DNA of 64,000 nucleotides from Octopus vulgaris (lineage: Eukaryota): positions 73,594,001 through 73,658,000 of the forward strand of contig OX597824.1 in NCBI GenBank assembly GCA_951406725.2, read 5' to 3'. The notes below the pieces were generated by a model. That model saw nothing but the letters and a program-made list of their open reading frames with translations, was not told the origin of the DNA and did not search any database. Made by a program: the position numbers and the translations under genes. Positions 12,559-27,100 of the stretch are shown in pieces. Position 1 is the stretch's first letter, and each line of letters opens with the position of its first letter.

Positions 12559-15500
12559 ATAATAATAATTCCTTTCCAGGATTTTTGTGGGGAGGGTGAC
12601 AATTGATCACATTGACCCCAGTACTTGACTGGTACTTAATTTATCGACCTTGGCGGAATTTGAACTCAGAATGTCAGGACAGATGAAATGCCATTAGACA
12701 TTTCACCCAGCGTACTAACAATCCTGCCAGCTTGCCACCTTACTACTACTACTAATAATGATAATGATAATAATTGCTGTGTGTTAAGAAGCTTGCTTCC
12801 CAACCACATGGTTCCAGTGCAGTTGTCTCTCTTGCACACCACAATGGATGCCTCTAATGCCCAACTTTTCTCTTGTTAAGATAAAATCCTTTTGTATATA
12901 GGAAGTCGGATAGGGGAAGAAGTGTTGAGATAACTTGATTAGATACAGGGTGTCCCAAAAGTCACTGATGTGTTTCAATTTTTAGTAACTTCCTTAATGT
13001 TACAAATGAATGCATGAAATTTTGATACAATATAAAGGACATTATGGAAATTAATATGCACAAGTCGAATTTTACAACACCACTACATCACATATGAAAA
13101 ATGACATCGATTAAATGGCATTAACCTTTTTGTGACCATATTTCTGTTGAAATACACTGACAATGTTTCAGTTAATTTTGAAAATAATGAAGAATTTATT
13201 GAAATAGCCTTGTTGTTATTTAACTGGAGTTTGGAACATGAATCAACCATGGATGGTTTTAATTTAGATCACCTTAACCTATTTCTTTATTACCCACAAG
13301 GGGCTAAACATAGAGGGGACAAACAAGGACAGACATAGGTATTAAGTCAATTACATCGACCCCAGTGCGTAACTGGTGCTTAATTTATCGACCCTGAAAG
13401 GATGAAAGGCAAAGTTGACCTCGGCGGAATTTGAACTCACAACGTAACGGCAGACGAAATACCGCTAAGCATTTCGCCCGGCGTACTAACGTTTCTGCCA
13501 GCTCGCCGCCTTATTTAGATCACCTTAACCGTTTAGCATTTAAACCTGCCATTGCTGGCCCAGATATTCTACATGTTTTATGGTCAAACTGACCAGATCT
13601 AGCCTCTCACACCTACCCTATAATGTAATTCTAAAAATAAACAATTACATCATTGAAATCCCAAAGCCATGAGATAATCATGATTAACCCTTTCAATGCC
13701 AACCTGGCTGAAACTGCCTCTAGCTCTGTAGTCATCATCATCGTTCGACCGTGGTCAAGACAATGGAATTTACTATGTTATGCCAGACTTCACGGTCCAT
13801 CATAGCATTACGGAGGTCCTGTTGCTGGATGCCTGTATCCCTGAAGATTACATTAGGGTAGGAGAGTGTGCGCCCTCTGGTATCGCAAGCAGATGGCTTC
13901 CAGAGGAGAAGAGTAGAAATTACCTCGTTTTCAGCTCTACAACAATGTCCAGCAAACTGTAGCACTAATGTCTTGTTTTCAAAAGTTCTCATTTAAAATC
14001 TTCCACCAAATCATAGTCACAATTTATGTTCCTAACACTAGCTTAATGATAACTAAGTTATTTTGCTAATTTCTTTGTCATATTTAAAATTAGTTGAAAG
14101 AAACACAGAGCATCTCAATAAAAATGGAGTAACAAAATGGTTTATTCAATGGTTAATTCAAAACACCGAATACATAAGCATTGCATTCAGCAGGTTAATC
14201 TGAACACTAAAGGGTTAAAACAGTGGATTTGTATCATAGAACCAGGGATGATCTCAGGCAGTTTGGTATCAAAAGGGTTAACCCTTTAGCATTTAAACTG
14301 GTCATATCTGGCCAAAATATGTTGTTATATATTCGAACCAACCAAATCCAGCCTCACACACCTACCCTACAATGTCATTCTAAAAATAAACAATCACATC
14401 ATTGAAATCTCTAAGTTGAAATAATGCATGATTAATTCATTTGACTGACTTATCTGAATACTGAAGGGTTAAACTACTTGTTAAATCTCTATCTTCAGAT
14501 TGTGGAGAACGGTTGATGGTTTTAAACCAGAACTATAGCCATGTAGAGAATTTCTATTTTATAATAGACATGGTTTCATATTACAAATAGACATATTAAT
14601 AATTTGGAATATCCAAAAGAGATACATTAATTATATGTTCTAATTGTTTTGTTTAGGATGTGGCTTGAATTTCCATAAACGATGTGCCTATAAGATCCCC
14701 AATAATTGCAGCCTAGAGAAACATCGGAGACCTTCTACTGGAAGCGTTAAATCAGAAGTAGCCTCAGACTCCCAAGTAAGTACTTATTTTTCTGTTTGTC
14801 TGTCTCTCTTTCTCTTTTTTTTTTTAAATGTCTATTTTTCGCTCAGCTTTTCTGATGATAACCAGAAAACCACAAGTGTTGGCGAAAGATTGTTATATAC
14901 AGTACTCTGTCTTTCTATTTTTCACTCTCTTGCTATCTCCCTTGCTCTCTTGCTCCCTCTCGCTTCTTCTCTCCCTCTTTCTTTCTTTCTCTATCTCTCT
15001 CTCTCTCTCCCTCTCTCACCACTTTTTGCTCAAGCCTTCTGAAGATAACCACAAAATATTCTCAAGATTGTTATATATAGTGCTCTCTCTCTCCCTCTCT
15101 CTCTTTCTCTTGCTCTCATACTCTTTGTCTTTCGCTTTTGCTCTCATTCTCTTTCTTGCTTTTTGCCCCTCCCTCCCTCTCTCCTACTACTTCTCTGGCT
15201 ATTTTCTCCTTCCATTTTTTTTACTCAGTCTTTCTGAAAATAGTCACAATTGTTGTCAAAAGATTCTTATATGTACTACAAGCATTTCTATTTTGTATTG
15301 CTTTTCTCTTATAATACATATTTTATAGAAGGCGTCGCATTTGGAGAAACGTTAGCATGCCAGACAAAATGCTAAGTGCTATTTTGTCTGTCTTTACATT
15401 CTGAATTATAAATTCCGCCGAGGTTAAATTTGCCTTTCATCCTTTTGGGGTCGATAAGTTAAATACCAGTTGCATACTGGGGTTGATCTAATCGACTGGC

Positions 15501-22732: not shown

Positions 22733-24100
22733 ATAAATATTAGGGAATAAATCCAAATTTACAGGAAAAAAATCAGATTTAGGATTAAATCCAATTTTAT
22801 AGTAAAATATTATAAAATATTATTAGAGACAAAACCACTATTTTGCAAAACAAACAAGGAAAGACTTAATCAATACATAAAATTTTAATAAATAGTCTCT
22901 TCTTTTTTTTTTTAAAATATAATAGAGAGAGAGAGAGAGAGAATGTGCATCATACCCATTTCTCACTCAGGTATACAGGTAGTGTATGTTAAGAATGAGC
23001 CACCATCATTGTCTTCACTCCAGACACTCTCACACACTGCTCCTCGCATCCCATCCACCTACCTATTCAATATTTTCTTCCTCAGTGAGATAATGTTTAC
23101 ATTTTTGCCTTAATTTCATTTGTTTTGCTTTTTTATTTATTTTTTTTTTTTATTTCTGTTATTTCTCTTTCCAGATTGCAAGTTTAATTGCCACAGGAAA
23201 TGTGCCAATAATGTTCCAAATGACTGTTCTGGAGACATGATAAGTATGGACACTGGAAGTAAGGATCTTTTAAATAAATACATACATACATACATAAATC
23301 AGCATGTCTAGATATGTAGATATATGCATGAAAAGGTGTACATAAAACAAAACATACAGATCTGCACATATACATATACATACATACATGCATGCATACA
23401 TACATAGATACATATATACATATATACATACATACATGAGCATGTCTAGATATGTAGATATATGCATGAAAAGGTGTACATAAAACAAAACATACAGATC
23501 TGCACATACATACACATGCATACATACATACATAGATACATATATACCTATATACATACATGCATGCATACATACATACATACATACATACATACATACA
23601 TAAGCATGTCTAGATATGTAGATATATGCATGAAAAGGTGTACATAAAACAAGACATACAGATCTGCACATACATACACATGCATACATACATACATAGA
23701 TACATATATACCTATATACATACATGCATGCATGCATGCATACATACATACATACATACATACATACATACATACATAAGCATGTCTAGATATGTAGATA
23801 TATGCATGAAAAGGTGTACATAAAACAAAACATACAGATCTGCACATACATACATAGATACATATATACCTATATACATACATACATACATGAGCATCTC
23901 TAGATATGTAGATATATGCATGAGAAAACATACATAAAACAAACCATACAAATCTGCACATACACATGCATACATGCATACCTGTTTTTGATGTTGAAAT
24001 TCCAATGGAGGAGCCTTGGATCTAGGTTAGAAACTGGCTCTTTCTCTATTAGCAAGAAATCTTGAAATAAAACTGAATAATGACATACTTGTATGCATGT

Positions 24101-24137
<37 letters not shown>

Positions 24138-27100
24138 GGAAAAGTTTTGAATATGCAAATAAAGCTCCTATTCCATTATGCTGACCACAGTCTAATGATG
24201 CTGACTGGTGAACCAGTCTTTTGGGGTTGCATTGAGCTGTATCGATACAATGTAGGATAAAATATAAATAATAATAATAAGGGCACTCAGAGAGTGCAAA
24301 CCTCTGCCAAGGCAATACCAACATCCTCTCAACGATTAGCCAGAGATGATTTTTAAAATGAGAATATCTTAAATAACGTCGACTGCTCTCACAAACGAGA
24401 ATACTAAAAATGAACCCAACTTCTCTCAAAAATTAACTAAAAGGTGGCACGTAAAAAGCACCCACTACACTCACGGAGTGGTTGGCGTTAGGAAGGGCAT
24501 CCAGCTGTAGAAACATTGCCAGATAAGACCGGAGCCTAGTGCAGCCTTCTGGCTTCCCAGATCCCTGGTCGAACCGTCCAACCCATGCTAGCATGGAGAA
24601 CGGACGTTAAACGATGATGATGATGATGATGCACTTGACAGAGTAATCTAATTGCTAAAGGGTTAACTCATTTGATACCAGCCCTTTTGAGACTACTCCT
24701 GATTACATGATACCAACTTTCTGTATTAAGGTGATCTTAATTAAAAACCTTCCATCAAAATTTCATGTTTAACATACTAGTGACATAGTCATTTAACTAA
24801 TTTCTTCATTATTTTCAAAATTAAGACAATATGTTGCCACAGAAATATACTCAGCTGGCAAAAATGAGTAGTACTTGTATTTTGAAGGGCCAGCCTTGTC
24901 ACATTCTGTGACACTCTGAATCTCCCTGAGAACTACATTAAGGGCACTTAAAGTTACAACACCAACTTTCCAGATGCTGGTGGGCCAAAACCTCTTATAA
25001 TCCCACTAATTTATGAGCAAGAAATTAAAATTCCTGTGGCTACCAGACTAGTTTCCTGCGTGGCCTTGTTTCACAGTACCATGCACAGTACAGTATTAAT
25101 AAACTTGTATCATTTAGATGTCTTGCAAACAACTTGCACATGCAAGTGCTACCAGTTAAAAAATCCGTATACCGGAAGCTAGCAAGTGTATGGGGTCATC
25201 AGGAGAGAATGCGCGCCGTTTCGGGGCCTACCTCTCGACGGCATCAATGCGCACCGGCCCCCCTCACTGATATGAGGCCCCGCTTGCTAGATCAGCTAGT
25301 TATGAAGAACTCAATATACTTCTAGCCATCGCTCATCGTCTCATTAAATTAAATTAAAGCTAATACTTGTTTAACCCTTTAGCATTTAATCCAGACATAT
25401 CTGGCCCAAATATTCTACCTGTTTTATGTTAAAATTGACTACATCTGACCTCTCATACCTACTCTACAATATCATTCTAAAAATATACAAGCACACCATT
25501 GAAATCTTGAAGCTACAAGATAATACATGATCAATTCAAAGCAATGAAAATAAATAAACATTACATTTGACAAAGAAATCTGATTGCTAAAGGGTTAAGT
25601 TTATGGTAGTGAGCTAGCAGAATCATTAGCACACCAGGTAAAATGTTTAACGACATGTCATCTGTCTTTTTGTTCTGAGTTCAAACTCCACTGCGGTTGA
25701 CTTTTGGGGTGGGGGGTCAATAAAATAAGCACCAATTGAGCACTGAGGTTGATGTAATTAACTTACCCCCTCCACAAAACTGCTGGCCTTGTGCTAAAAT
25801 TTGAATGCAATATTTGTTTAATTTAGATATAACCACCTCTGGTTTTCAAACATCAGTAATCTAGAGAAGCTTTGGAATCAAAGATACCAGAAAATTGATG
25901 CTGTTCCAGAATAAACAATAACTATCGTAGAACTTCTTATAATATGATACTGTATCAGCTACAATCAATATCTGAATTCAGTTAACTGAATTTTATATTA
26001 TCACAAATGTTAATCCAAGCTCTTTCTTTTATTACAGGTTTTTCAGAATCTATTGAAAACTCTGAGAATGAAGGTCCAAGTGAGACTGAATCTGCAGAGA
26101 TGGGTGATGATGATGATGAAGGAGAAAAGAAACCTCCATTGAGGTGAGATGCCATCATTGGCATTAAATCAGTTTTAACATTAAAGCATTTTTGAGAAGC
26201 TGCCTCTTTGTGTCACCTTCAAAGATTATGAAAGGACTTGATAGTGTCGAGATGAATGCAGTGCAGCAGAAGTGTCTAGAGATGCAAGAAGCTGAGACAC
26301 AATACATCAAACTTTTGAGTACACACAAACACACACACAGAGGTTTGGCCAAAAGTCACCCGACAGTAAATCAAAATTCCATAAATACTTAATATTCAAA
26401 ATTTTATTTATCCATTTGGAAAAATGGTGTCGCTCAGGAAGGACTTCGGTTTGAACAATTTTCATGATGTATCATATTTAGATGTTTTTTATTAAATTCA
26501 TTCAGTAGTTAAGCATAAATAAATCTTAAGAATTAAATGGTTTTGATTTACTGTCAGGTGACTTTTGGCCAACCCTGTATATGTATTTCGTTTTTGGATT
26601 TGGTTTGCAAGATTCTTTATATGAGTTCGTGTGTTGAAGCATATTCTGTTGTGTCTGGGGAGAGTCATTTTCTTTTTGTGCCTTATTATGTAATACACTC
26701 ACCGGTAAAATTTCCACTTTTTTCTTATTTTTATTGTCCTAAAATTTTCGTTGCGTCTTGCAACCTTTTCAATAGTTTTGACTCCTACTGTATATGTATT
26801 AATATTAATAAAGAGTATACTGTATATGTATTAATATTAATAAAGACTTGTGCATCCATAAAATTTATTCTATAGTTATATACAGTATATTATAGTGACC
26901 TACACGTATTTCTGCTACAGCAACTACTCATTCAACAAATCTGATCATATTTATGCGATGGAGGAAATTAAATGTTAAAATGGATTATGGTTTTTATTCT
27001 TCATGCTGCTATACAATTTGTTTCATACAAAAGGACTCATATATTCATGATAGAAAATCAGAAAAGTTAAATCTGTACTCCTGTTTAAAATTGGCAGGAC

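Follow-up and report, generated by a model that had tools for sequence, protein, structure and literature searches.

A HERO-type retrotransposon tail from Octopus vulgaris with a hammerhead-core RNA, a split stem II and predicted self-cleavage

Hammerhead ribozymes with the block order cleavage site, GAAA, CUGAnGA (S-G-C) have been described as type SGC and are active in vitro, with cleavage rates of 0.007-0.19 per min given in the passages of Eckert et al. (2023, PMC10085705) used here. According to these passages, the type (HRIMA-1 and its variants) is known from metatranscriptomes only and not from genomes of known organisms. In its stem II, the strand that follows CUGAnGA is paired with the one that precedes GAAA, and the authors assumed at most 1-2 bases between CUGAnGA and its adjacent stems. 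Within the literature that we searched, the term 'type-SGC' was found solely in that paper. The motif described here shares with type SGC the S-G-C order, the core letters, a pseudoknotted core and a link of a few bases from the stem I strand to the stem II strand. It differs in that those two stem II strands each pair with an upstream strand of their own, with a hairpin between, and in that it resides in animal retrotransposons.

Penelope-like elements with hammerheads in their pLTRs resemble our element in the passages cited (PMC4209133, PMC11167929). They form partial tandems with the hammerhead in the repeated part, their reverse transcription starts internally, and a circular template has been proposed for their more-than-unit copies (PMC4209133). 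For a Penelope element of the same architecture, part of a later study reports that hammerhead cleavage was unneeded in vitro and that RNA which had not been processed was the main template (PMC11167929). These elements have a GIY-YIG endonuclease, a telomerase-like reverse transcriptase (RT) and minimal type I hammerheads, whereas ours combines an R2-like RT, a CCHC motif and a restriction-like endonuclease with a core that is full and non-circularly permuted. Non-LTR retrozymes, in excerpts from PMC7761336 and bioRxiv 10.64898/2026.07.22.740005, use hammerhead-made RNA circles as retrotransposition templates, and a 1.25-kb deletion unit from two sequencing runs (below) would resemble a non-autonomous circle of this kind. 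However, retrozymes are small, non-coding and Penelope-linked and carry type I hammerheads, while here the motif is borne by an autonomous 3.7-kb element.

The HERO clade has a single ORF with an RT and a C-terminal restriction-like endonuclease and no fixed target, as here, and R2-Hero is reported mainly from cephalopods in the sections cited (PMC4640811, PMC7650587, PMC10294476). Those sections do not describe a ribozyme, a tandem structure or a circular template, and passages of two 2026 preprints do not mention HERO. No description of a ribozyme in HERO was found in the openly readable literature that we searched. In the related RLE element R2, a self-cleaving RNA processes the read-through transcript, according to part of PMC13580325.

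A truncated retrotransposon copy in a host intron

The window is the whole 64,000-nucleotide stretch of O. vulgaris DNA that was analysed. A preliminary description, made from its letters alone, had noted a GC-rich structured island. This is really the 3' end of a multi-copy repeat and continues to 25114. The search of the genome (2.8 Gb, 227 contigs) gave 2294 first-look candidates for the repeat; 40 were scored, with top matches 96-98% identical. In this genome's case, an 81% identical protein bears the label Octopus sinensis, which makes an octopus the probable source. The 30 loci that were fetched have a common fixed 3' end and a variable 5' reach. The accompanying guess of a structured retroelement end was borne out by the repeat copies and the upstream ORF: the window holds the 3' end of a 5'-truncated copy of a young, multi-copy, RLE-type non-LTR retrotransposon (Table 1). 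Copies of the motif adjoin the retrotransposon ORF, which is the single ORF upstream of it in the window family, and relatives also carry the motif behind the ORF. Two features that had been listed with the motif do not belong to it. The T6 run is private to the window copy (1/30 loci), and a reading as Pol III terminator or SINE was rejected for that reason. The (attaa)3 stretch (also 1/30) is host flank at the truncation point, and not a plus-strand tail.

Table 1 Features of the element copy and its motif (window positions; paired strands given 5' to 3' on the minus strand).
Feature	Positions	Strand	Remarks
5'-truncated HERO-type copy: last ORF codons and entire 3' UTR	25114-25345	-	last 232 bases of element
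End of the element's single ORF: last codons, with stop codon at 25313-25311	25311-25345	-	
5' strand of outer 8-bp helix	25283-25290	-	25290-25283 pairs with 25186-25179; prolongs helix IIb
5' strand of helix IIb	25278-25281	-	pairs with 25195-25192, immediately 3' of CUGAUGA
Inserted hairpin	25262-25277	-	between IIb and IIa, no linker
5' strand of helix IIa	25256-25261	-	partner 25228-25223
5' strand of stem III extension	25249-25253	-	partner 25214-25210; then 6-nt bulge
Block S: stem III strand 25242-25238, GUC triplet, stem I strand 25236-25231	25231-25242	-	predicted cut 25237/25236
Block G: 3' strand of IIa, GAAA 25222-25219, stem III 3' strand and extension	25210-25228	-	
Block C: stem I 3' strand 25208-25203, CUGAUGA 25202-25196, IIb 3' strand 25195-25192	25192-25208	-	
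3' strand of outer helix	25179-25186	-	
Small hairpin of 3' UTR	25164-25176	-	T6 after hairpin private to window copy
Palindromic hairpin (25147-25132) and element 3' end	25114-25147	-	putative reverse-transcription priming site

An open frame of 1110 codons in one copy (L032) matches RVT_1 (Pfam) with E 7.7e-19, and frames of more than 1100 codons are retained in several copies. The best solved matches of the ORF are R2 proteins, and the nearest structures are those of R2 and LINE-1. By eye, alignment A1 contains what we take to be a CCHC knuckle and PD..D/ExK-type endonuclease motifs. The Penelope hallmarks, a GIY-YIG endonuclease and a telomerase-like RT, were not seen in the ORF, whose sole Pfam match (E up to 0.1) is RVT_1. 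Its RT motif blocks, nearly identical to those of HERO-1_BF and HEROTn, mark the element as HERO, as judged by a by-eye count on one 16-residue block. The element shares 14 of these 16 residues with each of those two, 11 with HERO-1_SP and 9 with HERO-1_HR, against 8 with R5-2_SM, 7 with Utopia-1_LV, 6 with R4_Hmel and 5 with R2_Dan among non-HERO rows. The reference sequences came as text from the supplement of PMC7650587, and the comparison covers this one block.

The window copy lies antisense inside an intron of a plus-strand host gene, with exons at 23174-23257 and about 26040-26143, and would therefore not cut the host transcript. The former exon encodes half a C1 domain (Pfam C1_1, E 8.6e-05, under the curated cut-off), and we presume that the gene is protein kinase D-like. 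Short inverted-repeat elements with matching 14-18-bp ends, MITE-like in appearance, occur at 25371-25598, 24632-24666 and 13525-14439 of the window. Elsewhere in the genome (G000:C29:18.63-18.65 Mb and 20.69-20.71 Mb; loci L003-L007, L009-L011 and L026), a truncated copy has been amplified with its flanks in a larger tandem region, which also holds a 278-bp satellite.

Conservation of the core and the split stem II

All hammerhead-core letters that had been pointed out lie on the minus strand of the window, and the core nucleotides are intact (U16.1 at 25238, C17 at 25237, position 1.1 at 25236; GAAA and CUGAUGA as in Table 1). Stems III (5 bp) and I (6 bp) are in register, and the outer ends pair. 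The block order is indeed none of types I, II and III, being S-G-C instead of CGS, GSC or SCG, and the canonical stem II is missing, as both 10.1 and 11.1 are C. The cut site named in the preliminary description is also the site given by the alignment of relatives, cleavage itself being a prediction. One pairing had to be revised: the partner of the strand before GAAA is not the G-run at 25281-25275; judged by the register seen in relatives, it is the 5' strand of helix IIa. The first G of that strand substitutes for G10.1 in a pair with C11.1.

The folding energy of the window motif is unremarkable (z -0.42; 69/200 shuffles fold equally well), and the other strand gives no signal (z -1.52). 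Energy minimisation folds the window copy into another, rod-like structure. Rfam returned eight weak matches over 24000-26500, none covering the motif, and no match on six relatives. It is conservation in relatives, not folding energy or Rfam, that confirms the motif as beyond chance at the level of sequence.

Using a C-terminal protein alignment, we collected 80 metagenome loci (28-56% identity; the best 80 of 342) and searched them with a descriptor of the form stem III-UH-stem I ... RAAA ... CUGAnGA. The descriptor matched 47 of the 80. After 12 loci with fewer than 150 bases after the ORF were set aside, 45 of the 68 eligible relatives carry the motif behind the ORF in the order site, GAAA, CUGAnGA. 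Control scans of the same 68 matched none on the reverse strand and 3 within the ORF, and each of 20 shuffles gave 0-1 matches. By eye, several of the 23 eligible relatives that miss the descriptor have the core words and a broken stem, and others have nothing. Viral contigs yielded 34 pattern matches, none of them a relative. Between stop codon and motif, a tRNA-like stretch was seen by eye in six relatives (L087, L091, L130, L137, L144 and L153), possibly due to SINE insertions or chimeras.

Removal of identical cores, of L087 (doubtful register) and of loci at least 80% alike left 37 non-redundant loci, the window included. Their cleavage triplets are GUC (14), GUA (12) and GUU (11), never GUG. 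GAAAC occurs in 35 and AAAAC in 2, and the U16.1-A15.1 and G16.2-C15.2 pairs are present in 37/37. N7 of CUGAnGA varies freely (18/9/7/3), the other six letters being fixed by the search. We aligned 24 of these loci without regard to structure and picked nine pairs by eye in IIa, III and I. In these helices 97.2% of cells are paired, against 24-48% in slid controls. The nine pairs show 57 double changes, where shuffles give 14.4 and slid controls no more than 8; these counts are inflated by relatedness and leave out IIb, which is misaligned. Relatives keep the register of the three blocks with covariation in the stems, and the refuting condition of the preliminary description, a loss of register, was not borne out. 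In this comparison, distant families preserve every core letter as well as stems I, III, IIa and IIb.

The canonical 10.1-11.1 pair is possible in 6/37 loci only. The strand before GAAA pairs with a strand that starts 19-25 bases before U16.1, forming helix IIa of at least 4 bp in 33/37 loci (swap control mean 12.5, maximum 20). The first IIa pair is G-C or G-U in 33/35, like the canonical G10.1-C11.1, with the G supplied by the upstream strand. The strand after CUGAnGA pairs with a strand further upstream, giving helix IIb of at least 6 bp in 26/36 (control mean 4.8, maximum 11). Search windows for both helices were picked after inspection of the core, and the swap controls used the same windows. 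Where both upstream strands were called (31 loci), the segment between them folds in 29 as a hairpin almost or entirely without a linker. A GA/GA kink-turn pattern with a 3-nt bulge was counted in 22/37 loci, an uncontrolled figure, and is not present in the window copy. A canonical hammerhead formed across tandem units was rejected, since it would still depend on pairing between the strands after CUGAnGA and before GAAA, and these two strands do not pair.

The RNA is thus opened between A9 and G10.1: A9 leads into helix IIb, and the G for C11.1 is reached through IIb and the hairpin. An unpaired base between A9 and 10.1 is reported for some hammerheads in a passage of PMC4209133, so the position tolerates insertion. 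Two whole helices at this point, opening the molecule inside the CUGAnGA block, were not found described in the papers searched. The split breaks the spacing assumption of Eckert et al., as stated in the passages cited, and activity is therefore not implied by that of type SGC. Because the motif lacks one defining feature of the type, its stem II, we class it as a variant and predict that it works in a type-SGC-like manner. The preliminary description had spoken of a novel-topology self-cleaving RNA. A hammerhead-like RNA conserved in relatives stands, while the S-G-C order had already been published (PMC10085705, in part). As judged from the sequences, the novelty would lie in the split stem II and the host element, not in the strand order. 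Our analyses predict with good confidence that the motif cleaves itself after GUC (25237/25236).

Copy ends, junctions and the likely template

Eight of 17 long loci match the 5'-most piece of the element. Upstream of it, all eight have one and the same junction, beyond which lies the 3' end of another copy; the head-to-tail unit is 3738 nt. Among 30 loci chosen by this junction, 23 reach 5' beyond the predicted cut and none starts at it. A second set of 30 was chosen by an internal ORF piece, blind to upstream content. Counted from the cut, the 5' starts of this set are spread between +724 and positions beyond -728, 12/30 passing the junction into the preceding tail, 9/30 passing the predicted cut and none lying within 10 nt of either. 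The R2 ribozyme is HDV-like, lies at the element's 5' end and sets where insertions begin on that side. Unlike R2, the window family has no copy that starts at the predicted cut (0/30).

The 3' ends peak three bases past the equivalent of 25121. Of 103 copies that were scored (7 were unscored), 28 enter the head sequence by at least 5 bases. In the window, the end extends 7 bases beyond 25121, into sequence that heads full-length copies. Because 3' ends run into the head sequence, priming appears to be internal to a longer template. Of the 30 distant loci whose DNA extends far enough, 8 likewise show a transition from tail to a new ORF start (E 5e-7 to 2e-23). In two of the eight partial tandems, the upstream piece is clearly closest to its own downstream copy (L069, 4 vs 13-34 differences; L031, 11 vs 19-27), and this same-template test was uninformative in the other six. 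No target-site duplication brackets any of the eight; one of about 25 bp is present at a solo copy, L002.

Several other features of the copies were recorded. In L008, L285 and L290, a short duplication of ~158 nt, repeated twice in L008, has its end 21 bases beyond the predicted cut; it may stem from template slippage or mark a small subfamily. The independent insertions L175, L176 and L182 start at +95/+96 from the cut, in the palindromic hairpin, which may reflect a reverse-transcription stall. The element head contains a short purine-rich word repeated 2-6 times at ~20-nt spacing (L067:4584-4800). These repeats are kept in the distant relatives L112, L120, L123, L127, L133, L145 and L153 and are a candidate internal promoter or protein-binding array. 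Copies close together in inverted orientation were seen at L196 (G000:C11:84627500-84634500), where the 5' part is inverted, and at L200/L201.

We also inspected contigs of sequencing runs, none of the runs listed being on record as RNA. Those of X1 and X2, taken by guess to be RNA, belong to one study and show neither ends nor strand. In X1, a 1283-nt contig closes on itself as a 1.25-kb mini-element. Its depth stays flat at 76 where it crosses the cut, the junction and a deletion of 2483 nt, against 30 or less over most of the ORF interior (0-54). Run X2 has the same deletion joint, which is not listed in X4 or the DNA-like X16. From 129 candidates we examined 30 loci, and no genomic source of the deletion unit was among them. 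A self-closing contig would also arise from a long tandem array. Runs X3, X5, X9 and X16 show a 3' pile-up, as expected from truncated copies. One contig of X5 (L067:4396-4470, depth 6) has a joint that resumes two bases 3' of the predicted cut, a single and weak observation. In the genome, internally deleted mini-elements of about 1-1.6 kb keep the junction and the ribozyme region (L173, L176, L177, L178, L179, L183, L185, L188, L190 and L034, from a junction-picked, biased set) and are candidate non-autonomous units.

We favour, with modest confidence, a model in which the RNA of this HERO-type element, cut by the predicted split-stem ribozyme in its tail, is likely circularised and copied round the circle. 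A partial-tandem copy would be transcribed across two ribozymes, and both would cut after GUC. The released 3.7-kb unit (5'-OH, 2',3'-cyclic phosphate) would be ligated without a scar, presumably by RtcB or by the ribozyme in reverse. The element protein would prime reverse transcription at an internal site some 119 nt 3' of the cut. Synthesis would then round the circle for a random distance, giving a fixed 3' end, no 5' end and new partial tandems. Such tandems would be the only copies able to remake the circle, and the window copy would be a short dead end. Taken overall, a circle seems to us the simplest account of the ends, the junctions and the X1 contig, and somewhat probable.

An active ribozyme might instead act on a linear template and trim or limit read-through, with longer copies made from uncut partial-tandem RNA by internal priming or by precise template jumps. 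Penelope provides a precedent, with internal initiation, dispensable cleavage and no reads ending at the cut in the passages cited (PMC11167929), and all DNA evidence of copies passing the cut is compatible with uncut RNA. However, read-through of a finite partial tandem should produce daughters that share a start and a host flank. No 5' flank is shared between independent insertions among 55 flanks, bar loci fetched twice and one near-identical pair (C20). Template jumps should leave scars, and the predicted cut has none, nor any indel, in 108 ORF-picked copies, where C17 differs in 3, like other CpG sites (median 4). A set of 95 aligned copies, biased to high identity, is also free of scars. 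Among the 40 listed matches no two junctions lie 3.7 kb apart, and X1, if it is RNA, holds a self-closing contig. We regard a linear template as unlikely, though a serious possibility.

The scarless site fits clean ligation and fits an absence of cutting equally, and nearly every copy needs RNA that is intact across it. This would suit a hammerhead-derived fold that cleaves barely or not at all and serves as a protein-binding signal setting the start of reverse transcription, as would its short, fairly fixed distance from the priming site and the loss of the canonical first pair of stem II. Yet in all 37 loci H17 is C, A or U, with G absent, so that a position constrained by chemistry alone follows the pattern of active hammerheads. 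The pair that substitutes for G10.1-C11.1 is also kept, and a binding signal would not be expected to hold this pattern while the stems change freely, which leaves a non-cleaving fold quite improbable in our judgement. An origin of the match by chance or misalignment within a GC-rich 3' UTR would agree with the ordinary folding energy, the silence of Rfam and the choice of helix windows after the fact. It is refuted by the counts in relatives (45/68 against 0-3/68 in controls), the swap controls on identical windows and the covariation, and we consider it negligible.

The circular reading can be extended to HERO as a widespread, R2-like lineage without any 5' end, in which a split-topology hammerhead makes circular units, TPRT rolls round them, and deletion derivatives persist as expressed non-autonomous RNA circles. 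We hold this wider proposal tentatively, at a little short of an even chance. The motif would represent a naturally occurring hammerhead architecture of a sort that is barred by design from published search patterns. It would also bring non-circularly permuted ribozymes from anonymous metatranscriptome RNAs to animal genomes, with thousands of candidate copies. The element would offer a testable case of a circular template in an R2-like lineage unrelated to Penelope, with intact young copies, and internal priming on such a template would bear on R2-type gene-writing tools.
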